From a virus (taxonomy: Duplodnaviria; Heunggongvirae; Uroviricota; Caudoviricetes): a stretch of 35,065 nt of DNA. This document shows, piece after piece, positions 674 through 33,792 of this stretch; position 1 is the stretch's first letter, and each line of letters begins with the position of its first letter. The translations under genes were made by a program, and so were the position numbers. The stretch lies in the IMG/VR virus record IMGVR_UViG_2778261624_000006. One strand, written 5' to 3'. The notes beneath the pieces were generated by a model. The model had not been told where the DNA came from and ran no database searches. It saw nothing but the letters and a program-made list of their open reading frames with translations.

Positions 674-3639
674 TATGCAAGCCTCACAATATAGTTAAAT
701 GCGATGTTTTTGACGGTGTTTTCCGCGTTACCAGCAGCGTTAACGGTGATGGTGTGTCCATGTGAACCAATCGCAACGGAGTGCGTATGAGCACCAATAC
801 CGACAGTATGCGCGTGTGCACCTGCAGATGCTGCTGTGCCGGACAGTGAATGGCTATGATTACCATCTGTACTGGTATTCGCTAACCACCCCGTAGACAT
901 ACCTACTGAGCCTTGTACACCCCAGGTATTTTGACCTGAGCTTGTATAACCATATTGATAAGTATCTTTAAAAACACTGGGGTTAAATCGACGGCCATCT
1001 CTATGGCTGTGATTACCAGCTGCATTCGTGCTGCCACTTAAACTATGGGTATGCGCACCAGTGTTATTCGTGGATTTAGTGCCGTAATCAAACGACGATG
1101 TGGTTTTCGTCCCCAAATCCGTACTGGATGCGCTGGCGCTGTGGGTATGCGATTTAATGCCGTCCTGTTCCTGAGACAATACGGCCCGACCACTGGCAGG
1201 TTTGCCCTTAATCGTCCAGCCACGCATATCAGGGATCACGCCTGACGGATAAGCGGCTGCAAGTTTCGGGTATGCAGATTTGTCAAAAGTCTGCCCCTGC
1301 ATCAGGGCATAGCCAGACGGAACGGTATCTGATGGCCACGGGATTGGTGCGCCAGGCGGATAAAACTGCTCTGATGGCGTATAGAGTGAATAAACTGTAC
1401 CGTCCGTTAACCCTTCCGGCTTATTAGCAGAATATGCTGGTGACGTATGAATCGTCACGCTGGCATTACTGGTATAATCCCATTGAATATTTACACCAGT
1501 CGCATAATTTCCGATTGCAACGTAAATATCGTAAGTATCACCAGATGTATTGACCCAGGCAAAATTTGTAAACCCTGTCGATGTGCGCTGCCATAAAGCA
1601 CCAGTAATCCCCTTCGGATTACCATTACCTGCACGTAAAACAAGTTCAGATATACCTGCCTGTTGAGGTGACCCCACGTTAAATCCAGCGCCACCAATCA
1701 ACGTAATTGAAACAACAGAACTCGCCTGTGGCATGGTTACCGTTGCTAATTTGAACCAACCAGCACCACCGCTGAATGACATTGTTGTTGAGTTAAGCGT
1801 ACCAATATCTTTCGGCGTCAGTGTTATATCCGCTGAAAGCGCCTTACCATTCACCTTACGGGCAGAAGGTACCCGACCATTCGCATTGTCATTAGCTGCT
1901 TTCACTGCTTTCGGTGTCGCAGCAAGCGTTTCAGATGTGCTGTTGGTTGCACTACTGAGCTGGACAATTCCTTTTTGTGCTGTCGTAGCGTCCTGTGCGG
2001 TGTATTTCCCGTTAGCCAGGTCATACGCGGCCTTAACGGCTTTTGGCGTTGCCGCCTGTGACTCGGAAGTGCTGTTAGTCGCACTGCTGAGCTGAACTAT
2101 CCCTTTCTGTGCTGTCGTTGCATCCTGTGCGGTGTATTTCCCGTTAGCCAGGTCATACGCGGCCTTAACGGCTTTTGGCGTTGCCGCCTGTGACTCGGAA
2201 GTGCTGTTGGTCGCACTGCTGAGCTGTACTATCCCCTTTTTCGTCGTGCTCGCATCCTCAAGCGCCACGGCGGATGCAATATCCTCTGCCCGTTTTGCTG
2301 CTGTCTCGGCGCGCGTTGCCGCGGATTCCGCCGTACTTTTGCTCTGTGCTGCCGCTGCCGCACTGCCAGCAGCCTCTGTCGCCTTCGTGGATGCCGTCGT
2401 GGCGCTGCCCCTCGCTGCTGACGCCTGTCTGGTCGCCTCATCTTTTGAAGCAGACGCAGATGATGCCGATGACGCCGCCGAACTGGCGGACGATGCGGCA
2501 GCCGTTTTTGAGGATTCTGCGCTGGTTTCCGACGCTTTCGCGTTCGTTTCGGATGTCTTCGCTGCGGAAGCAGACCTCGCTGCTGCGCTGGCCTGTTCAG
2601 TGGCTTCGCCAGCCTTCGTTGTGGCTGTTGAAGCGGATGATGCGGCGCTTTCTGCCGATTTTCCGGCGGCGGTGGCACTGACTGCTGCCTCCTCTGCCTT
2701 AATGGACGCCTCACGGGCCGATGATGCAGCTGCTGTCTCAGAGTCTGCCGCAGCTGAGGCGCTCTGTTCCGCTGCCGTTTCAGAAGACCTGGCATTCGTC
2801 TCGGACGTTTTTGCCGCCTTCACGGAATTTCCTGCCGCCGTTGCCGAGGAGGCTGCACTGCTGGCGCTTGTGGAGGCGTTCGTTTCTGATGATTTTGCCG
2901 CCTCTTTGGAGGCCGCCGCATCTCTGGCTGAAGTGGCGGCTTCTGACGCTTTCGTCGTCGCAGTGGATGCAGAAGTGGCTGCTGATTTTTGTGACGCTGC
3001 AGCATTCGTTTCTGACGTTTTCGCCGCACCGGCACTGGTGGCCGCCGCGCTTTTTGAGGACTCTGCAGCGGCAGCACTTTTTGATGCTTCAGTGGCCTTT
3101 GTTGATGCCGTTCCTGCGCTGGAAGACGCCTCCTGAGCCGAAGTCGCGGCCTGTCCGGCTGACGTGCTGGCTGCACGCGCTGAGCCTGCAGCATCAGTCG
3201 CATGGGTTGCCGCCTCACGGGCAGATGTGCCGGCATCACTGGCTGACTTCTTCGCGGCTGCCGTGTTCTGTGCCACCGCGGACGCGTTACGCGTCACCTC
3301 TTCCACCATCAGTTCAAAACGGCGCAGAGCCTCCGGACGGGCATCATCCTCCGTCATGGCACCGAGAAAATCATTCAGCGTACCGGGTCGGGAATCTTCA
3401 TACACGGTGATGGTCCCGGCATGTGACGGCGGGAATCCTTCCACCAACAGAATAACGCTGTACTGACCGTACTCAACGTCCATGCTGTAACGCCCGGCTT
3501 CATCCGGATTTTCTGAGGCCAGCGTGTTCACCACCACCGTGGTGCTGTTACGTTTTGCTTTCAGCTGGATTGTGCAGTTCTGTACCGGTTTTCCTGTGCC
3601 GTCTTTCAGTACACCTGAAATCTTTACTGCCATATTCAC
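673..3639 (-). CDS. stf: side tail fiber protein (Stf), 988 aa, with long Ala/Ser/Thr-rich region, three tandem 45-aa repeats and His-rich HxH motifs near the C-terminus
   Basis: Single long ORF after lom in the lambda gene order; conserved N-terminus; repeat unit [44 protein letters not shown] seen three times; GAHTHS, GNHSHS and GAHAHT motifs. Confidence 0.85.
1837..2241. repeat. three tandem ~135-bp direct repeats inside stf (two near-identical copies ~1972-2106 and ~2107-2241, one diverged copy ~1837-1971)
   Basis: Direct reading of the DNA: the same ~135-bp string recurs back to back; encodes the 45-aa fiber repeat. Confidence 0.8.
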
Positions 3640-3642
3640 CCC

Positions 3643-3670
3643 ACAAAAAAGCCCGCCTGAACCGGCGGGC
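3643..3670 (-). terminator. putative rho-independent terminator downstream of lom
   Basis: GC hairpin GCCCGCC-TGAACC-GGCGGGC followed on the minus strand by TTTTTTGTGG. Confidence 0.5.
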
Positions 3671-3697
3671 TGTCATAACACTGTGTTACCTGGCTAA

Positions 3698-4297
3698 TCA
3701 GAACTTATAACCGACACCCACGATGAAACCGTCAGTGCGCCAGTCGCCACTGCCGGAGCCTTCATAAGCAATATCAATGGCCACGGATTCGGTCGGGTTA
3801 AACTGCACGCCAGCTCCCCACGCCAGAGACGTGTTGCTGTGGCGACCGTCATCACTTCCGGTCAGCACGTCGTGCGTTTTCCCCTTGTTGTCAGTTACGC
3901 GGAGATAATCCCCGGAGAAAGTCGACACACGGCTGTAAGCCACACCCGCCATCGCATACGCGCTGAACCATTCATTCACGCGCACAGACGGCCCCGCCAT
4001 TACGCTGAACCAGCGGTTACGAACGGAATCTTCATGCCAGCGAGTATCGCTGTAATGGGTCAGCTGGCGATTCTTGTCTCCTGCATAGCTGAATGACGTC
4101 ACCAGCCCCAGCGTATCCGTAAACTCATAACGGTATTTCACGTTAATCCCGTTCAGATCATCACTGCCGGGAACGTTGGTCCGGGCATGAAGATACCCCG
4201 CGCTCAGCGTGGACTGATGTTCAGAGGCCCATGCAGGCGCACCGGATACGGCCAGACAAATGGCTGCGGACAAAATGGCGGCACAAACTTTACGCAT
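3698..4297 (-). CDS. lom: outer membrane protein Lom (Ail/Lom family)
   Basis: 199-aa ORF with signal peptide and beta-barrel-like sequence ending in a C-terminal Phe; lies between J and stf as in lambda. Confidence 0.9.
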   Translation of the reverse strand: MRKVCAAILSAAICLAVSGAPAWASEHQSTLSAGYLHARTNVPGSDDLNGINVKYRYEFTDTLGLVTSFSYAGDKNRQLTHYSDTRWHEDSVRNRWFSVMAGPSVRVNEWFSAYAMAGVAYSRVSTFSGDYLRVTDNKGKTHDVLTGSDDGRHSNTSLAWGAGVQFNPTESVAIDIAYEGSGSGDWRTDGFIVGVGYKF

Positions 4298-4320
4298 AAT
4301 TACCTCTCGCTTTTCTGCAA

Positions 4321-4345
4321 TAAAAAAGGCGTCATTCCTGACGCC
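4321..4345 (-). terminator. putative rho-independent terminator downstream of J
   Basis: Hairpin GGCGTCA-TTCC-TGACGCC followed on the minus strand by TTTTTTATT. Confidence 0.5.
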
Positions 4346-4367
4346 ATTTATTGGGGTTATAAATATT

Positions 4368-7300
4368 TCAACGAATACTGATGCCGGAAGACGCTTTTTT
4401 GGTCACAATCACCGTACAGTCGGTGATATTGCCTGCCCCCTGATTGCCTTTCTGGAAAATCTTAAACTCCAGAGTGACGCTACCACCACCACTAGGCATA
4501 TCAATAACTGCACTGTAATTTCCGCTCCCCGGATCGTCATACGCTATACCGTTAAAAATAATGGGCGGAATAATAATCTGGCGGTCAAAGTTATGATCAT
4601 CGCTGATGGTGACTGTAACCGTACCGTTTGGTGTTTCCGTGTTACCCCACGTACCGACTTTTTTCGGGAAGGCTTTTGATACAGCTTTAACGAAATCCCC
4701 TCTGACCAGGGTCGCCTCCAGCATGCCCTTAATCGTACAGTTCTGGTTAATCGTGACATTGTTGAGCGTTCCTGAGTTCGCATTCACACTACCACTGATA
4801 TCCGCATTTTTAGCGGTCAGCTTTCCGTCTGATGTCAGGGAAAATACCGGAGGACTGCCACCGCTGGTAATGGCGGGGGCTGTCAGGCGCTTCAGGAACA
4901 CGTCGTTCATGAATATCTGGTTGCCCTGCGCCACAAACATCGGCGTTTCATTCCCGTTTGCCGGGTCAATAAACGCGATACGGTTAGCGGCAACCAGAAA
5001 CTGGCTCAGTTTGCCTTCCTCCGTGTCCTCCATGCTGAGGCCAATACCCGCGACATAATGTTTGCCGTCTTTGGTCTGCTCAATTTTGACGCCCCACATG
5101 GCATTCCATTTATCGTTAGCGTCCTGCCACTCTTTCGAAAACTCATCCAGTCTGCTGGCGTTATCCTCCGTCAGATCAACTTTTTCCAGCAGCTCCTTGC
5201 CGAGATGGGATTCGGTTATCTTGCCTTTGAAAAAATCCAGGTAACCTTCCGCATCATCGCTCGCCCGACCGACGGCCTCCACGAATGCCGATTTGCCAAC
5301 GGTGTTCACACTGCGGATATAAAAGTAATAATCATGGCCCGGTTTGATATTGATACTGGCGGCTATCCAGTACAGCGCCGTACCAAGATAGCGGGCTGTG
5401 GTTTCTACCTGCCTGATATCGGTAATCCGCGTTTCCGAGAACCAGAACTCAAACTGTACCGTCGGGTCATAAACGGCAAGATGCGGCGTGGCGGTTATCT
5501 GAAAATAGCCCGGCGTCAGCTCAATCCGCGACGGCACTGCAGGTGCGGCAATCCGGAACGATACCGATGCCGGATCGCCCTGCTGCCCCCGGGCATTTAC
5601 CGCCCGGACTGTCAGCCTGTAGTTCCCCAGCGCCAGTTGCGTGAAGCGGTATGTGGTTTCCGCCGTCCGGGCTGTGCTGACCAGCCGCTCACTGCCGTCA
5701 TCCGCTGCCACGGTCAGGCGAAGCATGAAACTCACGCCCTTCACCACCTTCGGCGTATCCCAGCGAGCCAGTACCTGATACTCCCCGCTGTCTGCGGTAA
5801 CTTCGGCAGTCAGGTGCTGCACTGCTGGCGGCGTGACACCATTCACCGTGCCGCTCTGGTCGCCGTCAAAGTGCGCCCCGTTATCCACGATGGCTTCTTT
5901 TTCCGGTACATGCTGCACGGCGGTGATGGCATACGTGCCGTCGTCGTTCTCACGGATACTCACGCAGCGGAACAGGCGCTGGCGCAGCGTCGGCAGCTTC
6001 AGCCCCCACACGCTGTATCCGGCAACGCCGTCAGGAACACGGCTCACTTTTACCTTCACGCCGTCGGTGACGGACTGGACCTCCACGCTGACCGGATTGC
6101 CACTTCCGTCAACCAGGCTTATCAGCGTGGTACCGGAGGATGGCAGCGTGATTTCACGGTCGAGCGTCAGCGTCCGGATCTGGCTGTTTACCGCCAGCAC
6201 GCGCCCGCCGATGCTGATACCGGCATAGTCATCATCACAGATTTCAATGACATCGCCCGGCACATGGCGAAGCCCTTCTGCGCCCACGCTGAAGTCCACG
6301 GTCTGCGTTTCCAGCAGCTCCGTTTTAATCAGCCACAGCCCGGTTCGGTGTGCCTGCCCCCGGCTGGTACAGCCAAAGGCATCCATCTTCGTGACATTAC
6401 GACCGTAACGGGCAATGGCCTGCGTGTCCTCCACAAGCTCTGTTGCCGTTTCCCAGCCGTTATCCGGGTCAATCCAGTTCACCTCAACGGCATTATGGCG
6501 GTCCTTCAGGGCGCTGAAACTGTAGCGGAACGGCGCGCCATCATCCAGCATCACCACATTACTGCGGTTATAGGTCCACACCTTATCCGACGGCCGGTCC
6601 TGCACGAACGTCAGCGTCTGCCCGTTCCATACCGGCATACAGCGCATCGCCGAGCAGAAATCACTGAGCACATCCCACGCCTTACGCTGTGTGGTCAGGT
6701 ACGCATTACAGGTGATGCGCGGCTCCGTACCGCCAAAACCGTCCGGCACCGACTGGTCGCAGTACTGGCCGATGACATACAGCGCCCATTTATCCACATC
6801 TGCCGCACCAAGACGTTTCCCCATGCCGTAGCGCGGGTGGGTCAGCATATCCCACAGACACCAGGCCATGTTGTTGCTGTATGCCGGTTTTAACGTTCCG
6901 TCCCAGATACCGCTGTATTGCCGCGTCTGCGGGTTATAGTTCGACGGCACCTGCAGAATGCGCCCGCGAAGATGATAATTACGGCTCACCTGCTGGCTGC
7001 CGAACTGCTCCGAATCCACCTGTACGCCGACCAGTGCCGTATTCGGGTAGCACTGTTTCACATCGATGATTTCGGTGTATGACGACCAGAGCGTTTTGTT
7101 CTGCAGCTGGTCTGTGGTGCTGTCCGGCGTCATCCTGCGCATCCGTATATTGAACGGGCGCGGCGGCAGGTTACCCACCACCACCGAGGCCAGATACTGC
7201 GAGGTGGTTTTGCCCTTAATGGTGATGTCTTTTTCCGTCACCCAGCCACCATTACGCTGTATCTGAACCAGCAGGCGAACTTCCGACGGATTCCGGTCCC

Positions 7301-9060: not shown

Positions 9061-9759
9061 TTACTGCGAAAGTTTGTTAATGGAAAGGAAGCCGCCAAAG
9101 TTGCCGACGTTATTGCGGAACTTACAACCGCTCAGGCATTTGCTGCATTTATCCTTCGTGATATCGGACGTTGGCTGGTCATATTCATCCGCGACAGCCG
9201 GACCGCTATAACCGCACTCGTCACCGCGATAGGTCCAGGTGCAGGTGTTGGCCAGCATGATACGTCCCGGAAAAACAGCGCCATCCGTTTCCGTCGGCGT
9301 GGACAGTACAAAGGAGGCACTCACCGCGCTCAGTTCGCTGCACTGCTCAATGCGCCAGCGGCTGATCACCTCCTGCTCCGGATCGGCGTAACTGTTTCCG
9401 TTGACGAAGTTCACCGCATCCAGAAAACGGGCGTAAACCTTACGCCGGACCACCGTTCCGCCGACCAGACTCTGCATATCTTCCGCCATCCCGGTGACCA
9501 TACCGTACAGGTTAGAAACCGTCAGCGTGGGGCGCGTACTGGTGCCTTTGCCATTCAGTTCAAAACCGCTCCCCTGAATGGGATACGGCTGATACTGTCG
9601 CCCCTGCCAGGTGACCGGCTCACCTTTTTCGTTCTGCTCATTACAGAAAAAATAACGTTCTCCACCGACCTCTGTCAGGTCGATTTCCCAGAGCACCACG
9701 CTGGCCGACTGCTCCGCACGGGTGCATTCATTCAGTGTTTCCTGCCGGATATCCTGCAT
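9061..9759 (-). CDS. L: tail tip protein L
   Basis: 232 aa, length and order as lambda L. Confidence 0.9.
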   Translation of the reverse strand: MQDIRQETLNECTRAEQSASVVLWEIDLTEVGGERYFFCNEQNEKGEPVTWQGRQYQPYPIQGSGFELNGKGTSTRPTLTVSNLYGMVTGMAEDMQSLVGGTVVRRKVYARFLDAVNFVNGNSYADPEQEVISRWRIEQCSELSAVSASFVLSTPTETDGAVFPGRIMLANTCTWTYRGDECGYSGPAVADEYDQPTSDITKDKCSKCLSGCKFRNNVGNFGGFLSINKLSQ

Positions 9760-10088
9760 CAGTTCACCACCTGTTCAAACTCTGCGCTGAACTCAACACG
9801 CAGCATACTGACCCGCGACGACCATTTTGCGCAGGTCACCTTTATCTGCCGCCACTCATAAGGCGGCGTCCACAGAAAGGATTTCCAGCCCCCGTGCTCT
9901 TCCAGAAACGACTCCAGTACCGTGGCCTCCTCACGGGGGACAGAAAGCGTCACGCTGTACGTTTTCAGGTTGGCATTCAGCCCGGCAGGCGCTCGCTGAG
10001 AATAGCCATCACCAAAGCGCACCTTTCTTACAGAAGGGACCGAAGCCACATCCATACCGGGTTTCACTTTCCAGCGGAAGGTCTTCAT
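9759..10088 (-). CDS. M: tail tip protein M
   Basis: 109 aa, length and order as lambda M; overlaps the H stop. Confidence 0.9.
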   Translation of the reverse strand: MKTFRWKVKPGMDVASVPSVRKVRFGDGYSQRAPAGLNANLKTYSVTLSVPREEATVLESFLEEHGGWKSFLWTPPYEWRQIKVTCAKWSSRVSMLRVEFSAEFEQVVN

Positions 10089-12646
10089 CGTCCACCTCCG
10101 GAGAACAGGCCACCATCACGCATCTGTGTCTGAATTTCATCACGGGCACCCTTGCGGGCCATGTCATACACCGCCTTCAGAGCAGCCGGACCTATCTGCC
10201 CGTTCGTGCCGTCGTTGTTAATCACCACATGGTTATTCTGCTCAAACGTCCCGGACGCCTGCGACCGGCTGTCTGCCATGCTGCCCGGTGTACCGACATA
10301 ACCGCCGGTGGCATAGCCGCGCATCAGCCGGTAAAGATTCCCCACGCCAATCCGGCTGGTTGCCTCCTTCGTGAAGACAAACTCACCACGGTGAACAATC
10401 CCCGCTGGCTCATATTTGCCGCCGGTTCCCGTAAATCCTCCGGTTGCAAAATGGAATTTCGCCGCAGCGGCCTGAATGGCTGTACCGCCTGACGCGGATG
10501 CGCCGCCACCAACAGCCCCGCCAATGGCGCTGCCGATACTCCCGACAATCCCCACCATTGCCTGCTTAAGCAGAATTTCTGTCATCATGGACAGCACGGA
10601 ACGGGTGAAGCTGCGCCAGTTCTGCTCACTGCCGGTCAGCATCGCCGCCATATTCTGTGCAATACCATCAAAGGTCTGCGTGGCTGCACTTTTTACCTGC
10701 GACATACTGTCCGTGGCGCTCTCTTCCCACTCACTCCAGCCGGACTTCAGGCCTGCCATCCAGTTCCCGCGAAGCTGGTCTTCAGCCGCCCAGGTCTTTT
10801 TCTGCTCTGACATGACGTTATTCAGCGCCAGCGGATTATCGCCATACTGTTCCTTCAGGCGCTGTTCCGTGGCTTCCCGTTCTGCCTGCCGGTCAGTCAG
10901 CCCCCGGCTTTTCGCATCAATGGCGGCCCGTTTTGCCCGTTGCTGCTGTGCGAATTTATCCGCCTGCTGCGCCAGCGCGTTCAGGCGCTCCTGATACGTA
11001 ACCTTGTCGCCAAGTGCAGCCAGCTGGCGTTTGTACTCCAGCGTCTCATCTTTATGCGCCAGCAGGGATTTCTCCTGTGCAGACAGCTGGCGACGTTGCG
11101 CCGCCTCCTCCAGTACCGCGAACTGACTCTCCGCCTTCCACAAATCCCGGCGCTGCTGGCTGATTTTCTCATTTGCTCCGGCATGCTTCTCCAGCGTCCG
11201 GAGTTCTGCCTGAAGCGTCAGCAGGGCAGCATGAGCACTGTCTTCCTGACGATCGCCCGCAGACACCTTCACGCCGGACTGTTTCGGCTTTTTCAGCGTC
11301 GCTTCATAATCCTTTTTCGCCGCCGCCATCAGCGTGTTGTAATCCGCCTGCAGGATTTTCCCGTCTTTCAGTGCCTTGTTCAGTTCTTCCTGACGGGCGG
11401 TATATTTCTCCAGCGGCGTCTGCAGCCGTTCGTAAGCCTTCTGCGCCTCTTCGGTATATTTCAGCCGTGACGCTTCGGTATCGCTCTGCTGCTGCGCATT
11501 TTTGTCCTGTTGAGTCTGCTGCTCAGCCTTCTTTCGGGCGGCTTCAAGCGCAAGACGGGCCTTTTCACGATCATCCCAGTAACGCGCCCGCGCTTCATCG
11601 TTAACAAAATAATCATCCTTGCGCAGATTCCAGATGTCGTCTGCTTTCTTAAACGCAGCCTCTGCCTTAATCAGCATCTCCTGCGCGGTATCAGGACGAC
11701 CAATATCCAGCACCGCATCCCACATGGATTTGAATGCCCGCGCAGTCCTGTCTGCCCAGGTCTCCAGCGTGCCCATGTTCTCTTTCAGGCGGCGGGTCTG
11801 GTCATCAAACCCTTTCGTTGCGGCCTCGTTCGCCGCCTGCAATGCCCCGGCTTCATCGCCGGAACGCTGCAACTGAGCAACATACGCAATCTGCTCCGTC
11901 GTCACGTTATGGAACTGGCGTGCCATCGCCGTCAGCCCCGACGTCGGGTCTGTGGTCAGCTTCCCGAAGGCTTCAGCGACCTTGTCCACCTCCACGCCGG
12001 ATGCAGAGGAGAAACGCGCCACACTCTGGCTGATGGACGCAATCTGAGCCTCACCGCTTACCCCCGCCTTAACCAGTGCGCTGAGTGACTCGCTGGTCTG
12101 GTTAAACGTCAGCCCTGCCGCCTGCCCGGCTCTGGACAGGACCAGCATACGATCTGCCGTCAGTCCCGCCTGATTGCCGGAAAGGACCAGCGTTTTGTTG
12201 AAATCGGACAGGGTTGAGTTGCCCTGATACCAGGCATACGCCAGCGCACCGGTCGCCACCGCCAGCGAGGTGGCCCCCACCATCGGCAGGGTGATCGCAC
12301 CGGCAAGCCCCCTGAACATGGGGATCATCCCGCCGAAGGAGTCCTTCACCTGCCCCCCCTGTTGCAGCAGGATCAGCCACGGACTTTGCCCGCCTGCAAG
12401 CTGCGTGGCCACGTCGGTGAACTGTGCAGGCAGCATACGCATGGCGGCTTTATACTGCCCGACGGAAATCCCCGCTTTCTGTGCAGCCAGCGCCTGTCGG
12501 CTCAGCGACTGTTCAACGACTGCCGCTGTTTTTTTCGCATCACTTTCCGTACCGGAAAAATGACGCCTGACTCTGGCCATCTGCTCGTCAAATCTGGCCG
12601 CATCCAGACTCAAATCAACGACCAGATCGCCTACCGGTTCAGCCAT
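10085..12646 (-). CDS. H: tail tape measure protein H
   Basis: 853 aa, identical length to lambda H; coiled-coil-rich middle and Gly-rich C-terminus. Confidence 0.92.
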   Translation of the reverse strand: MAEPVGDLVVDLSLDAARFDEQMARVRRHFSGTESDAKKTAAVVEQSLSRQALAAQKAGISVGQYKAAMRMLPAQFTDVATQLAGGQSPWLILLQQGGQVKDSFGGMIPMFRGLAGAITLPMVGATSLAVATGALAYAWYQGNSTLSDFNKTLVLSGNQAGLTADRMLVLSRAGQAAGLTFNQTSESLSALVKAGVSGEAQIASISQSVARFSSASGVEVDKVAEAFGKLTTDPTSGLTAMARQFHNVTTEQIAYVAQLQRSGDEAGALQAANEAATKGFDDQTRRLKENMGTLETWADRTARAFKSMWDAVLDIGRPDTAQEMLIKAEAAFKKADDIWNLRKDDYFVNDEARARYWDDREKARLALEAARKKAEQQTQQDKNAQQQSDTEASRLKYTEEAQKAYERLQTPLEKYTARQEELNKALKDGKILQADYNTLMAAAKKDYEATLKKPKQSGVKVSAGDRQEDSAHAALLTLQAELRTLEKHAGANEKISQQRRDLWKAESQFAVLEEAAQRRQLSAQEKSLLAHKDETLEYKRQLAALGDKVTYQERLNALAQQADKFAQQQRAKRAAIDAKSRGLTDRQAEREATEQRLKEQYGDNPLALNNVMSEQKKTWAAEDQLRGNWMAGLKSGWSEWEESATDSMSQVKSAATQTFDGIAQNMAAMLTGSEQNWRSFTRSVLSMMTEILLKQAMVGIVGSIGSAIGGAVGGGASASGGTAIQAAAAKFHFATGGFTGTGGKYEPAGIVHRGEFVFTKEATSRIGVGNLYRLMRGYATGGYVGTPGSMADSRSQASGTFEQNNHVVINNDGTNGQIGPAALKAVYDMARKGARDEIQTQMRDGGLFSGGGR

Positions 12647-13073
12647 ACCGGACTCCTCCTGCGATCCCTTCTGATACTGTCATCAGCATTACGTCATCCT
12701 CCGTCATGTCCGCCACATCCGGGGAAGCGGGGATAACTTCATTCCCGTCCGGGCCAAAGCGGACACCTCCGGCAAGCCCTGCCGCTTTCTGCATCAGCAC
12801 ATCATCTTCAGGCTCTTCGTCAGCCTCGCGCCGGTTCAGCAGACTGAAATCCAGCGGATGCATATCCGGATCGCTGAAAAACAGGCTGAGCACGGTGTAC
12901 GTCAGCCCGGAAAAGTGCATATCCAGCAGAACATCATGAAAATAATGGGTACTGTAAAAGCGGTGCCAGTCGGCATACTCCGTGGATGACATCCCGGCAA
13001 GCATGGCACGCCAGTCGGGTCGCCCCATCTCACGCGCCAGTTTCAGGGCAAAACTCAGCTCACCGTCGAACAC
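12639..13073 (-). CDS. T: tail assembly chaperone T region (expressed as G-T fusion by -1 frameshift)
   Basis: 144-aa ORF in the -1 frame overlapping the G 3' end; slippery heptamer lies just upstream. Confidence 0.8.
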   Translation of the reverse strand: MFDGELSFALKLAREMGRPDWRAMLAGMSSTEYADWHRFYSTHYFHDVLLDMHFSGLTYTVLSLFFSDPDMHPLDFSLLNRREADEEPEDDVLMQKAAGLAGGVRFGPDGNEVIPASPDVADMTEDDVMLMTVSEGIAGGVRYG

Positions 13074-26023: not shown

Positions 26024-27106
26024 ATGAAAAAATTAACAGTGGCAATTTCTGCTGTAGCTGCATCAGTACTGATGGCGATGTCTGCTCAGGCAGCTGAAAT
26101 TTATAATAAAGACAGTAACAAGCTGGATCTATATGGGAAAGTTAATGCCAAGCACTACTTCTCCTCTAATGATGCAGATGATGGTGATACTACTTATGCC
26201 CGTCTTGGCTTCAAAGGTGAAACCCAAATCAACGATCAACTGACTGGTTTCGGTCAGTGGGAATATGAATTCAAAGGCAACCGCGCTGAATCTCAAGGCT
26301 CCTCCAAAGACAAAACCCGTCTTGCATTTGCAGGCCTGAAATTCGGGGACTACGGCTCAATCGATTACGGCCGTAACTACGGTGTAGCATATGACATCGG
26401 TGCGTGGACTGACGTTCTGCCAGAATTCGGTGGCGATACCTGGACCCAAACAGATGTGTTCATGACTGGTCGCACCACTGGTGTTGCAACTTATCGTAAC
26501 AACGACTTCTTTGGTCTGGTTGATGGTCTGAACTTTGCTGCTCAGTATCAGGGTAAAAATGACCGCACTGACGTAACTGAAGCTAATGGTGATGGTTTCG
26601 GTTTCTCCACTACTTATGAGTATGAAGGATTCGGTGTAGGTGCAACCTATGCTAAATCTGACCGCACTAATAATCAGGTTATCTACGGTAACAACAGCCT
26701 GAATGCATCTGGTCAAAATGCTGAAGTATGGGCAGCTGGTCTGAAATATGATGCGAACAACATCTATCTGGCTACCACCTATTCTGAAACCCAGAACATG
26801 ACTGTTTTTGGTAATAACCATATTGCCAACAAAGCACAAAACTTCGAAGTAGTTGCACAATATCAGTTCGACTTCGGTCTGCGTCCGTCCGTTGCTTACC
26901 TGCAATCTAAAGGAAAAGACTTGGGTGCGTGGGGTGATCAGGACCTGGTTGAATATATTGATGTAGGTGCAACCTATTACTTCAACAAAAATATGTCCAC
27001 TTTTGTTGATTACAAAATCAACCTGATTGATAAGAGCGATTTCACGAAAGCATCTGGCGTTGCTACCGATGATATCGTTGCTGTAGGTATGGTTTACCAG
27101 TTCTAA
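26024..27106 (+). CDS. nmpC: phage-encoded general porin (OmpC/OmpF family; NmpC/Lc-like)
   Basis: 360 aa; signal peptide ending AQA; 16-strand porin signature with C-terminal YQF; sits between Q and S on the opposite strand as in DLP12 and PA-2. Confidence 0.9.
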
Positions 27107-28713: not shown

Positions 28714-29168
28714 TACGCCTCCTGCTTGTCGCGGAGCAGCTGGAACTCGCAGCTCTGCGGAATAGTCAGGTGGCAGCCAATATTCACCGCCCAGGCTTCA
28801 ACCTTACACAGGAAGACATACATCTCTCCGGTATCAAGATCGGAGGTATGGCGTAACGACTGGATAGTGGTGATATCACCGGTTACGACATCAACCAGGT
28901 CTTTGGTTTCATAACCGAGATATGTGTGTTTGAGAGCATCTTTTACCCAAGCTGGAGTAGCGAACGTTTTACCCCTGCTGATGAGGTATTCACTGATTTC
29001 GCTGTACCACATGTGGCTGAGTGCATTCTGGGAAAGACTGCGTTTCTCACGCCACGGTTTAAGCACCATGCGAAAGCATTTGCCCTCCTCCAGATAAGGC
29101 TGGATCTGCCGACCGATAGCGGTGAAGTTACCGCGATGTAATTTGATGCCATCTTGTGGGAGATTCAC
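28713..29168 (-). CDS. ybcN: YbcN-like nin-region protein (DLP12 ybcN homolog, DNA base-flipping protein), GTG start
   Basis: 151 aa; matches DLP12 YbcN as recalled; not lambda NinB. Confidence 0.8.
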
Positions 29169-29266
29169 GCTTCACCTCCGCAGAGGTCAAACGCTGGATA
29201 CAATATATCGCAGGTGCATTTCTGCATCTGTGGAGGGAGAAGAGAGTTTGGATTGTGTGTGCGCAT
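29165..29266 (-). CDS. small hypothetical ORF (33 aa), possibly YlcH-like
   Basis: Hand-translated [33 protein letters not shown]; stop overlaps the ybcN start; very short, so weak. Confidence 0.3.
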
Positions 29267-29355
29267 AAACGTCCCCGTTTAGCGCAGAAGTCACCGGAGT
29301 TGTTCAGGCTCCGATGACATGATTATGGCGAGTTGATTATCGCAAATCAAAGGTT

Positions 29356-29712
29356 TTAATTGTGCTTTATTCCTTCAAGCGTTGCCTTCATACCAACCAA
29401 AGAAATGTTTAGCTCTCCAACTTTCTCAGGGCTATATAATTCAGAATGAAGCCAATATTCTGATTTATCTAAACATCTTTTAGCCAGCTCTCGATCAAAG
29501 TCTACGACTTGGGAAGACGCTTCATACCAAAGCCTATAAAGTTTTTCTTCTTCGTTTGGGTTATTAGGCTCACCACGTTTTAATTTTTCAGTATATAAAA
29601 TTGTTGAATAAATCGCAGGAGTTAATCCAGTGATTGCCCTCTGCCGCAGATCGGATTTGTTTGTTATCCACCCCAACAGACGATCTCCCATCCATGTGAT
29701 AATTGTATCCAT
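29356..29712 (-). CDS. hypothetical protein (118 aa), no family recognised; AT-rich gene
   Basis: Clean ORF with plausible start; no transmembrane segment or signal peptide; no motif I can place. Confidence 0.6.
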   Translation of the reverse strand: MDTIITWMGDRLLGWITNKSDLRQRAITGLTPAIYSTILYTEKLKRGEPNNPNEEEKLYRLWYEASSQVVDFDRELAKRCLDKSEYWLHSELYSPEKVGELNISLVGMKATLEGIKHN

Positions 29713-30173
29713 GCTTTAGCCCTTCTTAGTAAATAGTGTGTAGGGCGACTGAAGGACCGAGTTTATGCTTTTTCGCATTGCTTTCAGTTAGTACACCGGT
29801 ATCGCACCGGAAACAATCCTACGGCAAATTGGTTGTCTGACCTCTCGGTTTTTCGTGCATTAACCGATACCCACTACAGTCTCGGCGAAAGCTGCACACC
29901 CCCAGGGTGTACTGGTAGCACTCGGCACAGCCTAGCACGCCACTTTCTTCTCACTATCCAGTCTAATTTTATCCCCTAGTCAGACACTCAGATGTAGTGC
30001 TCCGCAGCGGCATGCGGGGGAATACAAAAACTCGGACAAAATTGGGCCCTCCTTTTTGAATCACTCGCGGGGATGTAGTTATTAATACATGGAAAAAGAT
30101 CTGTTTTCAAATCCAACATTATATGGTTTCAATACCACGGGGTGGCTATGTGTTTCTCATTGTTAATTGGAAT

Positions 30174-30497
30174 CTACTGTAATCGATCCGAACGTAAATG
30201 CGGCAAAACTCGACTCCACTTATCATCCTGCCACGGCCGGAATTTTACATGTGCCGTTTCTCTGGCAAGGATTGCCTGTGCCTTATTGAGTATCTGGGGA
30301 TATTCTTGCTCGATAGAAGTGAAGCGACCAGCTTCACGATGCTCCGCAACCTGAAGAAGAGGAGTAACGTTCTGGTAGGTAATTAACATCACATTCCCTG
30401 CTCGCCATAACCAGGCGAGTGTGCAAAGTTCGTTATCAGTGAATTGTTTTGTGATTGGGTATTGTTGAACTGCTAGAACGAGAACGCCAGCATCCAT
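30174..30497 (-). CDS. hypothetical protein (107 aa), no family recognised
   Basis: Clean ORF; an extended -10 promoter-like element lies upstream; no recognisable motif. Confidence 0.6.
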   Translation of the reverse strand: MDAGVLVLAVQQYPITKQFTDNELCTLAWLWRAGNVMLITYQNVTPLLQVAEHREAGRFTSIEQEYPQILNKAQAILARETAHVKFRPWQDDKWSRVLPHLRSDRLQ

Positions 30498-30575
30498 TGG
30501 CAGTCTCTATAGTAAAACCATAGCTCAGGACGCTTCGTTCAGGATAGATAATTTTATTGTACTTACCTAACTTTC

Positions 30576-30590
30576 TTATTATAGCACGGT
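30576..30590 (-). promoter_or_regulatory. candidate extended -10 promoter (TGcTATAAT) for the 107-aa gene
   Basis: Minus strand reads GTGCTATAATAAG about 80 nt upstream of the ATG at 30497; no good -35 element. Confidence 0.4.
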
Positions 30591-30608
30591 TGAAAAAGTG
30601 ATTATTAC

Positions 30609-32135
30609 TCAAAAATAAACCTCACCATCAACCATATATTTGAGAGTACTTATCGCCTGCTGGGCGGATATTGTTTTCATTAAAGGATAGTGTTTAAAAA
30701 CAATGCCATTCATAAAATAGATATCACAGGTTTTATTATCTGTATTGATTATGATTTTTTCGAATGTTTTATAGGCAAGTGTACGACATAGCTCTCGCCC
30801 ATTTTTACTGGTTAAGTCAATAGCATGAAAATCACCAAGTGAACTCACCGCTTTACTCTTCAAAGTTTTTAATGATACAGAAGCCCTTCGTAATTCCTTA
30901 TCTAATACTCTGATTTTTTCTGCTATAGCGGTAACTTCAGGCGCAACAGATAATGCAGCAATTAAATTATTAATTTTCATGTGGAGCTCAATAATTTTCA
31001 ACTCTAAAGTTTCATTAGCATCTTTCTTGTTTTCAACTGGTTGGATTTTACTACAATTAAAAAGCAACTCATTAATGATATTATAATCAACCAAATCTCT
31101 CTTTATTGATGGCCTGTCACATCGATGCAGTCTTCTCATCGGACAAACATAATAGCCATGCAAACTTCCAGATACCGCATGAACAATCATGGTATTACCA
31201 CAAGCCTCGCACTTCATAACTGTTCGAAGTAGATTTATCAACATAGGATTTTTGCTACTATTGCTAATACCAAAAGGTGCCAACCGAATTTCCTGTACAG
31301 CGTAAAACAAATCATCTGATATGACTCTGGGATAATAGCCAGCGATTTCACTTATTCCTTTACCTCTTGCACGATATGAAGGTACGCATATACCTATCAG
31401 AGCTTTATTCGCTAATAATTTTTCAATTACAGAAGGTCCCCATGCACTTTCTTTTCCTGAGAAATTCTTTACAGCATGATCATTTAAATACTTGGCTATT
31501 GCATTCAATGAGCGCCTTTCCATCCTGAGTTTAAAAATTAGCTCAATAGTTTTCACCCTGTCGGGGTCTGGAACAAAAGCCGTTCTTTTGTCATCTAAGG
31601 AGAGCCATCTCGGACAAGACGCCGTCATAATCGTACCTGATTCCAGTGCATCCTGCCGTTTTTTCTTCCATGATAATTTAACCCGACTTGACTTTATCTC
31701 GCTTTCTTCATTTGCCCTTTGTGCTATAAGTATGGCTTTTATTAATGAATATGGCTCATTCAAAGAGTCAATATTATAGACTGTATTGTCGCAAAGAGTT
31801 ATAACATCAATACCGTGATTCAAAATCAATTTCAGACGTTCAATCGCTTCACCGACTTTTTCTCTTGAAAGTCTGTCCAGACTTTCAACTAACAATGTAG
31901 TTCCTGGCAATATATAACCATGCTCTATAGCATCTAAAAATTCCGAAAAAGCTCCTGATTGTGCATGCTTTCCTTTGAATGCACTTAATCCTAAATCTTC
32001 ATATGTTATGGTATCAAGATAATAATCACTATTTACCTTTAACCATTCAGCAATAAGTCTTCTCTGTCGGTTTAATGAGTCGCCAGACATCTGACCTGGT
32101 GATGAAAATCGCATATATGCTATGGCTTTTTTCAT
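30609..32135 (-). CDS. ybcK: large serine recombinase (resolvase-type catalytic domain, recombinase domain, zinc ribbon); YbcK-like
   Basis: N-terminal AIAYMRFSSPGQ...R motif of serine recombinases; Cys cluster CEACGNT...YYVCP...C; 508 aa, the typical large-serine-recombinase size. Confidence 0.85.
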   Translation of the reverse strand: MKKAIAYMRFSSPGQMSGDSLNRQRRLIAEWLKVNSDYYLDTITYEDLGLSAFKGKHAQSGAFSEFLDAIEHGYILPGTTLLVESLDRLSREKVGEAIERLKLILNHGIDVITLCDNTVYNIDSLNEPYSLIKAILIAQRANEESEIKSSRVKLSWKKKRQDALESGTIMTASCPRWLSLDDKRTAFVPDPDRVKTIELIFKLRMERRSLNAIAKYLNDHAVKNFSGKESAWGPSVIEKLLANKALIGICVPSYRARGKGISEIAGYYPRVISDDLFYAVQEIRLAPFGISNSSKNPMLINLLRTVMKCEACGNTMIVHAVSGSLHGYYVCPMRRLHRCDRPSIKRDLVDYNIINELLFNCSKIQPVENKKDANETLELKIIELHMKINNLIAALSVAPEVTAIAEKIRVLDKELRRASVSLKTLKSKAVSSLGDFHAIDLTSKNGRELCRTLAYKTFEKIIINTDNKTCDIYFMNGIVFKHYPLMKTISAQQAISTLKYMVDGEVYF

Positions 32136-32319
32136 GGTGACACCTGCTAACGTATGCTTTTATAAACCTTAGTGGTGGGATATAATTTTTGTTTAATTTT
32201 TATTTAAAAAGACAATTAAGGTCACATTATCTTGAATATACAACAATAATCGTATTGCAATTTTCTTACGCCATAATCTTGAAAGCACAAAAGAATACAT
32301 AAAAAAATAAAGACATTAA

Positions 32320-32360
32320 CAAAAAGCATAAAACGAGGCTCATATAAATATAAGAGCCTC
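32320..32360 (-). terminator. putative rho-independent terminator downstream of emrE
   Basis: Hairpin GAGGCTC-loop-GAGCCTC followed on the minus strand by a T-rich run GTTTTATGCTTTTTGTT. Confidence 0.5.
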
Positions 32361-32391
32361 CATATTTTAGTCGTTTAGAAACAAATTATTT

Positions 32392-32724
32392 TTAATGTGG
32401 TGTGCTTCGTGACAATAAATTAATAACCAACACACCGGCACAAATCAACATCATGCCTATAATGGCTGGCAGGTCCAGCCGTTGGCCGAAAAGTCCCCAT
32501 GACAGTAAGCTAATCAGGACAATACCGACTCCTGACCAGATAGCATAAGCAATCCCTGTAGGAATATAAGCCAGCGTCTGAGCTAATAACCAGAATGATG
32601 CACAATAACAAATAATTGTACCAACAGATGGCCATAACCGTGTAAAACCTTCTGAAAACTTCATTAAGGTTGTACCAATGACCTCTGCAAGTATTGCACC
32701 ACCAAGATAAATATAAGGGTTCAT
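32392..32724 (-). CDS. emrE: SMR-family multidrug efflux transporter EmrE (110-aa reading from MNPYIY; ORF track extends to 32778)
   Basis: Four-transmembrane SMR protein with conserved Glu in TM1 (AILAEVIGT); matches E. coli EmrE as recalled. Confidence 0.92.
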   Translation of the reverse strand: MNPYIYLGGAILAEVIGTTLMKFSEGFTRLWPSVGTIICYCASFWLLAQTLAYIPTGIAYAIWSGVGIVLISLLSWGLFGQRLDLPAIIGMMLICAGVLVINLLSRSTPH

Positions 32725-32791
32725 AGAATATTCTTTCCTGTTCAAACTGGAGAGAATTGTACTACAGTTTGAACTCAACTCACCTGTTTCA

Positions 32792-33094
32792 TCATTGTGT
32801 ACCCATTGATGTTCTTTTATATACCCTCAATACCCGTTTCATCGCGGCACTCTGGCGACACTCCTTAAAAATCAGATTCGTGCTCACCTTTCCTTCCCGT
32901 TCTTCTCTGGTAGCAAACCGGTAATACACCGTTCGCCAGACCTTACCTTCGATAACCAGAAGACCTGCCCGTGCCATTTTAGCCGCAGCCTGATTTATGC
33001 TGGTTACCGTTGCGCCTGTTACCGCGGCAACGTCCTGCGCACAGAATTTCTTATGAGTCCCCAGGTAATGAATAATTGCCTCTTTGCCCGTCAT
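32792..33094 (-). CDS. ren: Ren-like protein
   Basis: 100 aa; matches lambda Ren over most of its length as recalled; immediately follows P with an ATGA overlap. Confidence 0.8.
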   Translation of the reverse strand: MTGKEAIIHYLGTHKKFCAQDVAAVTGATVTSINQAAAKMARAGLLVIEGKVWRTVYYRFATREEREGKVSTNLIFKECRQSAAMKRVLRVYKRTSMGTQ

Positions 33095-33792
33095 ACCCTT
33101 GCTCCTTTCAGCCCAAACTTAGCTTTGATTTCTGCGATCTTCGCCAGAGCCTGTGCACGATTTAGAGGTCTACCGCCCATGACAGGAAGTTGTTTTACTG
33201 GTTCAGGTATAGCCTCACCACGGTTAATTCGTGCGGTCATACAGGACAGTTCATCGGCAGCCTTGCGCCGTAATTCCGCGTCAGTCAACGCATTGGCCCG
33301 CATGTTCTGATACAGGTTGGTAACCAGCCAGTAGTGCGCGTTTGATTTCCACGGATAAGACTCTGCATCCGGATACAGCCCGCGCTTCCGGCAATACTCG
33401 TAAACCATATCAACCAGCTCGCTGGCGTTTGGCAGCCCGGCGGTAACGGATGCTTCTTCCCGGCACCAGGCGACAAACTGCCCGGGTGATGGCAGGAATG
33501 GTCGATTCTGCCGACGGGCTACGCGCATTCCAGCGTTAACCTGTTCCATTGTGGTGATCCCGTTTTCCCGGAAAGCCAGCACCCACTGGCGGCGGATTTC
33601 GTTCAGTTCATTCTGGTCACGGTTAGCCAGGCTCGCCGGGAAAGTTGCCAGTAACTGGCTGAACACACCATTGATGATCTGCGCTACCTGCTGTACCTGA
33701 GGCTTTTCGTCGTACTGTTCCGGCATGTTGTTGGCGATCCGACGCATCTGCTCACGGTCAAAGTTAGTCATCTGTGCGGCGATGTTTTTCAT
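33091..33792 (-). CDS. P: replication protein P (DnaB helicase loader)
   Basis: 233 aa, lambda P length; follows O with overlapping stop and start. Confidence 0.9.
   Translation of the reverse strand: MKNIAAQMTNFDREQMRRIANNMPEQYDEKPQVQQVAQIINGVFSQLLATFPASLANRDQNELNEIRRQWVLAFRENGITTMEQVNAGMRVARRQNRPFLPSPGQFVAWCREEASVTAGLPNASELVDMVYEYCRKRGLYPDAESYPWKSNAHYWLVTNLYQNMRANALTDAELRRKAADELSCMTARINRGEAIPEPVKQLPVMGGRPLNRAQALAKIAEIKAKFGLKGARV

Follow-up and report, generated by a model that had tools for sequence, protein, structure and literature searches.

What would a large serine recombinase (LSR) do inside a lambdoid prophage that integrates by means of a tyrosine integrase? The question is raised by IMGVR_UViG_2778261624_000006, a 35,065-nt viral sequence (hereafter the window, to which all unlabelled coordinates refer), in which a 508-amino-acid open reading frame (ORF) on the minus strand (30609–32135) separates the efflux gene emrE from a group of cargo genes. 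An earlier note, made from the letters of the window alone, described this ORF as an accessory LSR with a catalytic motif and a zinc ribbon, and proposed either that it drives a DNA switch or that it is the integrase of a small element that delivered emrE and the cargo. By sequence identity the ORF is the known and already annotated Escherichia coli gene ybcK of DLP12-type lambdoid prophages. Its structural description in the earlier note is confirmed, while our comparisons speak against both proposed functions. We tentatively favour a third, in which YbcK acts in trans on sites outside the window.

Identity and architecture of YbcK

Positions 29000–33300 are 100% identical to several E. coli chromosomes, including that of strain KSC207, where the ORF is named ybcK. 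The K-12 DLP12 copy is the same gene, with ~98% protein identity and 508 residues, and occupies the same place after ren-emrE. The two prophages differ beyond it: in K-12, 370 bp of unique sequence separate ybcK from ybcL-ybcM, in the window a truncated antirepressor gene and a 118-residue ORF come after it, and DLP12 is defective in K-12 whereas the window prophage is apparently complete. K-12 ybcK is listed as a "predicted recombinase" and its product as "putative recombinase YbcK" (UniProt P77698); full-text literature searches returned no study of YbcK recombination activity.

The protein matches the Pfam families Resolvase, Recombinase and Zn_ribbon_recom, each above its curated cut-off (Table 1), and in an alignment of 23 YbcK relatives, with identities as low as 28%, residues R9, S11, D87, R88 and R91 as well as cysteines C309, C312, C331 and C339 are invariant. 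The codon of the catalytic Ser11 lies at 32103–32105. An AlphaFold2 model (mean pLDDT 82) has the complete serine-integrase layout, including a long alpha-E helix (residues 128–166), a helical Recombinase (RD) domain (191–281), two coiled-coil helices (368–397 and 401–429) and, beyond the coiled coil, a C-terminal beta domain (458–507) that matches PHROG 2371. Foldseek aligned this model over its full length to the SPbeta SprA, phiC31 and Bxb1 integrases at 14–19% sequence identity. A family profile search of PDB also recovered SprA (E 2e-20), and a single-sequence phmmer search with YbcK against the same database gave no match. Among phage protein families, YbcK matches PHROG 95 ("integrase"); its match to PHROG 125 ("DNA invertase") is weak and confined to the N-terminal half.

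All the parts that define the LSR family, namely the catalytic domain, alpha-E with the RD domain, and the zinc ribbon with its coiled coil, are found in YbcK, which we consider an intact integrase-type LSR, predicted to be catalytically competent. The earlier note had offered disruption of the catalytic serine or the zinc ribbon as grounds for abandoning its assignment; both are intact in the alignment. Its view that the recombinase is accessory is likewise upheld by KSC207, in which the far end of the prophage, ~7 kb past the right end of the window, is formed by the tyrosine integrase gene intD adjoining tRNA-Arg. The window is apparently a complete DLP12-type lambdoid prophage at argU, and ybcK is not at the boundary between element and host: all 80 viral loci, like every E. 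coli and phage locus examined, have it at an internal position.

Distribution and selection

Of 5,426 complete E. coli genomes, 1,399 (roughly one in four) carry ybcK, always beside emrE and in one or two copies per genome that track lambdoid prophages. No second YbcK-family gene, at a prophage end or elsewhere, was found in the complete E. coli genomes searched. Twelve phage records carry ybcK at 97.6–98.0% protein identity with the emrE-ybcK block visible in their annotation, and isolated viable phages with the gene include Perceval, 4A7, PhiR68_2 and Turner, among others. Six alleles (from the window, K-12, O157, strain C7, Perceval and PhiR68_2) all encode 508 residues, and their pairwise ratios of nonsynonymous to synonymous divergence (dN/dS) are 0.06–0.12, with dS up to 0.175. 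These values are a clear signature of purifying selection and exclude neutral decay of the gene.

Selection of this kind bears on the possibility that ybcK is a passive passenger of lambdoid mosaicism, an integrase gene captured illegitimately from another prophage lineage and either kept for some other function, for instance as a DNA-binding regulator or exclusion factor, or not yet decayed. Lambdoid mosaicism accounts easily for one-gene modules whose limits fall at gene ends. Truncated neighbours, such as the Rha/P22AR remnant in the window and a DUF1367 fragment beside a relative of ybcK (locus L011, below), are signs of illegitimate joining, and our searches for attachment (att) sites found none. 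Moreover, a Rho/NusG-dependent terminator in the 5' untranslated region keeps ybcK silent in K-12 (PMC4150792). The low dN/dS argues against this explanation, however, as do the retention of the catalytic residues, the zinc ligands and the coiled coil, and the long residence of the closest relatives in nin regions of other genera. A defence-system role was set aside, as PADLOC matched neither YbcK nor its neighbours to any defence model. We consider this passenger explanation unlikely.

Separation of ybcK from emrE

A nested element of ~2.3 kb (30525–32815), comprising emrE and ybcK, with ybcK as its integrase, could have entered the phage beside ren, a narrow version of the second proposal in the earlier note. 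The two genes are always linked in phages, the G+C content of the block is 0.35–0.39 against ~0.5 in its neighbours, and the ren-side boundary is sharp (32801–32849) and marked by a duplication of ~20 nt from the 3' end of ren. Yet of the 3,699 matching E. coli genomes, ~2,300 have a match to emrE, 92% identical, without ybcK. Gene order was read in one locus of this kind, that of strain HS (L016; NZ_CP185286.1, 2758391–2770809), whose match has the same extent as those of the ~2,300 genomes. At positions 3071–6419 of this locus, flanked by fliE and a truncated yedK (SRAP) gene, is what remains of a decayed DLP12-like nin region: emrE-ybcL-ybcM, the region upstream of ybcN and a quuD fragment in that order; an IS200 is also present. 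The homology of the window to this stand-alone emrE covers 32384–32801, and its fliE-side end is the ren/emrE boundary of the phages (32801). emrE with the same ren-side boundary but no ybcK is difficult to reconcile with a joint element, and three further observations point the same way: the ybcK-side boundary of the block is not one point, phages without the block show a replacement of 1–2 kb rather than an insertion, and neither end has att-like repeats. A nested element is thus very unlikely, and by these comparisons emrE was not delivered by ybcK.

The HS locus also delimits ybcK. From ybcL, K-12-type prophages are homologous to HS as far as HS position 5996; toward emrE, homology resumes at 6001, leaving 4 nt unaligned. 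At this gap K-12 holds 2.08 kb that contains ybcK only, together with ~250 bp upstream and ~300 bp downstream. Since emrE lies directly beside ybcL-ybcM in HS, ybcK itself is a 2.1-kb present/absent unit, and relative to HS it appears as a clean one-gene indel. The indel may be either an insertion or a deletion between short imperfect repeats, and the 8% divergence between emrE alleles with and without ybcK indicates that the event is old.

Such a unit suggests a minimal self-mobile element similar to an insertion sequence (ybcK with short flanks, 1.8–2.1 kb), in which YbcK inserts and excises its own gene at permissive accessory slots in prophages, islands and plasmids. Such an element would leave emrE and ybcL intact on either side of a unit that is cleanly present or absent and holds ybcK alone, as is seen, the empty form having just 4 unaligned nt; imperfect 7–9-nt direct repeats (GTTTyTArA) occur at both K-12 junctions. 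Relatives of ybcK are solitary genes in very different contexts, from nin regions to plasmids, and in two Pantoea genomes 94%-identical LSR genes have unrelated flanks. Several observations oppose self-mobility. A serine transposase (of the TnpX/TndX or IS607 type) is expected at several target sites or in several copies per genome, but in E. coli ybcK has one context, always beside emrE, with no ybcK-only match and no second family member seen. No recent gain or loss was seen, the emrE alleles with and without ybcK differing by the 8% noted above, and purifying selection has acted over a dS of 0.17 without movement. Repeat searches gave no terminal inverted repeats, and the short direct repeats are no more frequent than chance would give in AT-rich DNA. 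Filled and empty sites compared among the relatives represent cargo replacements rather than simple insertions, and a deletion between short repeats explains the indel between K-12 and HS equally well. Self-mobility therefore has, in our estimation, only a small chance of being correct.

The variable slot downstream of ybcK

Between ybcK and ybcN, at least five alternative contents occur: ybcL-ybcM in the K-12 type, an antirepressor remnant with the 118-residue ORF in the window, the antirepressor remnant alone, the remnant with an alpha/beta hydrolase gene, and almost nothing in the O157 type. The proximal breakpoints are at +9, +39, +283, +334 and ~+415 nt from the ybcK stop codon; K-12-type homology ends at 30600, 9 nt past the stop, and an O157-type chromosomal locus breaks at +66, its homology ending at 30543. 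At its distal side the slot always ends at ~29351–29354. Scattered proximal breakpoints combined with a constant distal boundary form a pattern of deletion and replacement and not that of one att site. We interpret the variation as ordinary lambdoid deletion and replacement, with selection keeping ybcK whole.

Phages IdasGreatGrand and PhiR5_1 lack the emrE-ybcK block. They have a full-length Rha/antirepressor gene, within which homology to the window breaks at 30484, and carry 1–2 kb of other small genes in place of emrE-ybcK; homology to block-less phages starts again at 32819–32849, in the last codons of the ren-like gene. Because other genes take the place of the block, the difference is a replacement and not an insertion. 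This is the comparison that the earlier note advised for defining insertion boundaries. That note would have counted uniform flanking DNA across many genomes against its reading; the flanking DNA varies. Its suggestion of an element that has ybcK as integrase and brought in emrE and the cargo is, as stated, not supported, given the ~2,300 genomes with emrE alone and the scattered breakpoints of the cargo.

Local rearrangement and candidate recombination sites

All 80 IMG/VR contigs with ybcK share one gene order and orientation (P-ren-emrE-ybcK, the variable slot, then ybcN-quuD), as do six annotated E. coli and phage loci, and in the matches listed, a spread sample of the 3,699 matching genomes, ybcK always aligns as one co-linear block. 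Neither the viral contigs, nor the annotated loci, nor the matches listed include an inverted or translocated variant. The flank search for att-type or inversion repeats that the earlier note had called for, run on 29000–33300, returned only short families of direct and inverted repeats typical of chance, and 12–14-nt k-mers common to the ybcK flanks and the remainder of the window did not exceed shuffled expectation.

These results bear directly on a DNA switch, in which YbcK would flip a nearby segment controlling emrE or the cargo. YbcK is a serine recombinase, and its small relatives Pin, Gin and Hin do invert prophage segments. But the Hin, Gin, Cin and Pin invertases have ~190 residues and a C-terminal helix-turn-helix, whereas YbcK has 508 residues and the RD domain, zinc ribbon and coiled coil of an integrase. 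An invertase should also leave its segment in both orientations between inverted crossover sites. The flanks of ybcK contain inverted repeats at chance level only, no flank-to-window repeat of at least 12 nt rises above shuffled expectation, and the orientation is invariant in the 80 viral loci and in every genome match listed. The constancy of order and orientation gives the switch of the earlier note no support, and we regard it as extremely unlikely.

Individual repeats were considered as att sites and rejected. Of the two copies of the 18-nt repeat TTATATnnnnTCAATACC (30119 and 32817), one coincides with the ren-side boundary and the other with no boundary. In a K-12-type locus (L019, 4762–4811), a perfect 13-bp inverted repeat, AAAATACGTGACA-N24-TGTCACGTATTTT, lies 200 bp 3' of ybcK and at 50 bp in total is of attP size. 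This repeat is limited to K-12-type prophages, is whole in 675 of 675 genomes with no half-site junctions, and has no counterpart 3' of the relatives, so it is unsupported as an att site. A 13-nt repeat, TTTAGAAAyAAAT, at the ybcK stop codon and the emrE junction of K-12 is weaker in the window and has the frequency expected by chance in AT-rich DNA. Across the family, no conserved non-coding motif was found 5' or 3' of the gene beyond very close pairs. Recombination directionality factors (RDFs) are not homologous between systems, and no candidate was identified for YbcK.

Relatives of YbcK in other bacteria

Relatives with 40–61% identity are found in Atlantibacter, Yersinia, Erwinia, Ewingella, Citrobacter, Kluyvera and Pantoea, and their surroundings were compared over 10 kb on each side. 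The nearest (59–61%) are in nin regions of lambdoid prophages with the order X-LSR-(KGG)-DinI-orf-DUF1367-NinG-Q, where the module ends ~110–150 nt upstream and 0–170 nt downstream of the LSR gene; the best 80 DUF1367 loci in IMG/VR have no LSR and carry other cargo at the same place. In other relatives the LSR gene closes a prophage at its tail-fibre end: in Atlantibacter at 540 bp from ssrA, the one case of tRNA adjacency found among the relatives, in Erwinia near lepA, and in Yersinia behind tail-fibre assembly and autotransporter genes. The tail ends that the family occupies are those of lambda-like and Mu-like prophages, and the orientation of these terminal relatives toward host DNA is inconsistent. 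Further contexts include a YedK-type (SRAP) gene as neighbour in Citrobacter and another enterobacterium, the edge of an island in Pantoea dispersa, a convergent arrangement with ren in a Pantoea lambdoid prophage, a region resembling an integrative and conjugative element, and plasmids. In all of them the LSR gene is solitary, with no conserved partner. The 94%-identical LSR genes of the two Pantoea genomes share only positions -223 to +59 nt and have unrelated surroundings.

Some features of these loci were recorded in passing. Locus L011 holds a lambdoid prophage with an LSR of 60% identity. Its LSR gene is preceded by 200 bp (9652–9851 and 12633–12831, 86% identity) that repeat the 5' part of the DUF1367 gene and break off at codon 60, while the full-length DUF1367 gene follows LSR-KGG-DinI-orf92; the sister prophage in L022 is without the truncated copy. 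SOS and DNA-damage genes (DinI, UmuD/UmuC and SRAP/YedK) repeatedly adjoin the LSR gene (L023, L024, L025, L026, L184, L011, L180 and L183), in differing order and orientation, which may reflect shared cargo hotspots. A sequence of ~100 bp recurs around the LSR gene in related lambdoid prophages, namely L011 (8325–8435), L022 (9747–9842) and L183 (2670–2779), upstream in two of these loci and downstream in one. It is also found in many phages without an LSR and could be a small repeat of mobile or regulatory kind.

Comparison with known systems

The integrases of SPbeta (SprA), phiC31, Bxb1 and A118/TP901-1 have the five-part architecture and catalytic residues of YbcK in common. Each of them is the sole integrase of its phage and is encoded beside attP, ending at the prophage boundary; ybcK, in contrast, is internal, in a phage that uses a tyrosine integrase, and has no known attP/attB or RDF. 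LSRs also move small non-phage resistance units, examples being TnpX of Tn4451, TndX of Tn5397 and CcrAB of SCCmec, which the pairing of an efflux gene with ybcK superficially resembles. Unlike in those units, no defined ends, shared dinucleotide junctions or multiple insertion sites were found around ybcK, and emrE is independent of it.

ybcK further resembles the moron modules of lambdoid phages in occupying a slot with alternatives, in being AT-rich, in having ends near gene ends, and in having a hairpin and a Rho-dependent terminator upstream. In related phages, the alternatives in the ren–ninB slot include ybcL-ybcM, an alpha/beta hydrolase gene, Rha antirepressor genes, a PD-lambda-1 defence gene and an acyltransferase gene. 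Morons usually serve lysogenic conversion or defence; it is unusual to find a full-length recombinase of the integrase type, under purifying selection, in such a slot.

A trans-acting reaction as the favoured function

The DNA around ybcK is probably not the substrate of its product, because the neighbourhood is fixed in order and orientation, and a fixed position together with purifying selection suggests that the phage profits from ybcK rather than that the gene keeps transposing. We therefore favour, with somewhat less than an even chance of being right, a trans-acting reaction of the integration/excision type on sites outside the window. The comparisons show ybcK to be a self-contained one-gene module of ~1.8–2.1 kb that travels in the ren–ninB slot of DLP12-type phages. 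The published Rho-dependent silencing in K-12 argues against expression in the lysogen, and the position of ybcK in the early rightward (pR) operon, behind the Rho-dependent terminator, makes expression probable only with antitermination. The gene would thus be silent in the lysogen, with YbcK made under N-type antitermination after infection or induction. As the fold and the conserved residues suggest, YbcK dimers would bind two att sites of 40–50 bp and synapse them through the coiled coil, whereupon Ser11 would cleave at the central dinucleotide, the subunits would rotate and the strands would be rejoined. The most likely reaction would join a phage-borne site to a site in the chromosome or in a resident prophage, as a second reaction beside that of IntD and to the benefit of the phage; the existence of att sites outside the window, and their location there, we infer.

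Several points weigh against this proposal. Nowhere in the data searched did an att site, a partner site or a recombination junction come to light, although serine-integrase att sites are too degenerate for sequence alone to exclude them. The attP-sized inverted repeat of K-12-type prophages is absent from the window and gives no half-site junctions in the 675 genomes, and no family-wide inverted repeat is found 3' of the LSR gene. If integration took place through an attP adjacent to ybcK, the gene would be expected at a prophage end, but the 80 viral contigs, like the annotated loci and the genome listings sampled, never have it there. The inconsistent orientation of the terminal relatives means that these may be either prophage integrases or cargo beside attR. 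Finally, the purifying selection could reflect a role other than recombination.

Prophage setting and other features of the window

On the minus strand of KSC207 the gene order is cII-like, O, P, ren, emrE, ylcJ (frameshifted), ybcK, a C-terminal P22AR remnant, a hypothetical gene, ybcN (ninB), ninE, ybcO, rusA, ylcG and quuD, followed by the lysis, head and tail genes. This annotation and the ORF map bear out the position of ybcK between emrE and the cargo genes given in the earlier note. Table 1 lists the features around ybcK.

Table 1. Features in and around ybcK in the 35,065-nt window
Feature	Position	Strand	Evidence or remark
ybcK, large serine recombinase, 508 aa	30609..32135	-	complete ATG-to-stop ORF; Pfam; ybcK annotation in identical genomes; Foldseek
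Resolvase-type catalytic domain, N-terminal, aa 4-161	31653..32126	-	Pfam PF00239, 68.6 bits
Recombinase (RD) domain, aa 191-284	31284..31565	-	Pfam PF07508, 54 bits; helical domain in AlphaFold2 model
Zinc beta-ribbon, aa 302-357	31065..31232	-	Pfam PF13408 Zn_ribbon_recom, 33 bits; four invariant Cys
Predicted antiparallel coiled coil, aa 368-429	30849..31034	-	AlphaFold2 secondary structure
ybcK 5' untranslated region, AT-rich	32136..32391	-	sequence; absent from strain HS locus as part of the ybcK indel
emrE, SMR efflux pump, separate module	32392..32724	-	Pfam
ren-like gene	32792..33094	-	PHROG 142
Spacer 3' of ybcK	30498..30608	-	blastn, alignment
Truncated Rha/P22-type antirepressor, C-terminal remnant	30174..30497	-	Pfam P22_AR_C
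Remainder of variable cargo slot	29351..30173	-	118-aa ORF and 460 bp without ORF
118-aa ORF	29356..29712	-	PHROG 12412

The 5' region of ybcK contains the frameshifted small ORF ylcJ, and a hairpin (GAGGCTC..GAGCCTC, 32335–32360) lies just 3' of emrE; promoter and terminator consensus matches are at shuffled expectation. At the ren/emrE module boundary (32774–32843), the last ~20 nt of ren are imperfectly duplicated 50 nt apart (GATGAAACrGGT..TTGAG, minus strand), which may be the scar of a module exchange. In the cargo slot, the 460 bp at 29713–30173, between the antirepressor remnant and the 118-residue ORF, have no ORF of 50 or more residues and are 97% conserved with phage IdasGreatGrand; an Rfam scan of this stretch found no RNA gene. 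The sole Rfam match above the gathering score in the window is a full-length IS009 (RF02111) at 132–330 on the minus strand (226.7 bits). Between quuD and the lysis genes, an intact gene for a 360-residue OmpC/NmpC-type porin (26024–27106, plus strand) is opposed to the flanking phage genes; in K-12 DLP12 its homologue, nmpC, is interrupted by IS5.

Implications for lambdoid phages

The analysis mainly corrects the earlier picture of this locus: emrE and the cargo do not appear to have been delivered together with ybcK, and no local switch was found. ybcK is among the few recombinase genes of E. coli K-12 without an assigned reaction. If its att sites were found, YbcK would become a new serine integrase native to E. 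coli for genome engineering, the reason why a tyrosine-integrase phage keeps a second, unrelated integrase would emerge, and the part of site-specific recombination in the exchange of modules at lambdoid slots would become testable. A broader idea, which we hold to be distinctly unlikely, is that YbcK-type recombinases are long-term, selected residents of nin regions in at least two enterobacterial lineages, carrying out a site-specific reaction during infection or induction, perhaps integration at a second site in the chromosome or a resident prophage, or else insertion of one-gene or cargo modules into phage accessory slots. If module insertion were the case, YbcK-type enzymes would be a driver of lambdoid mosaicism and not a passenger in it.

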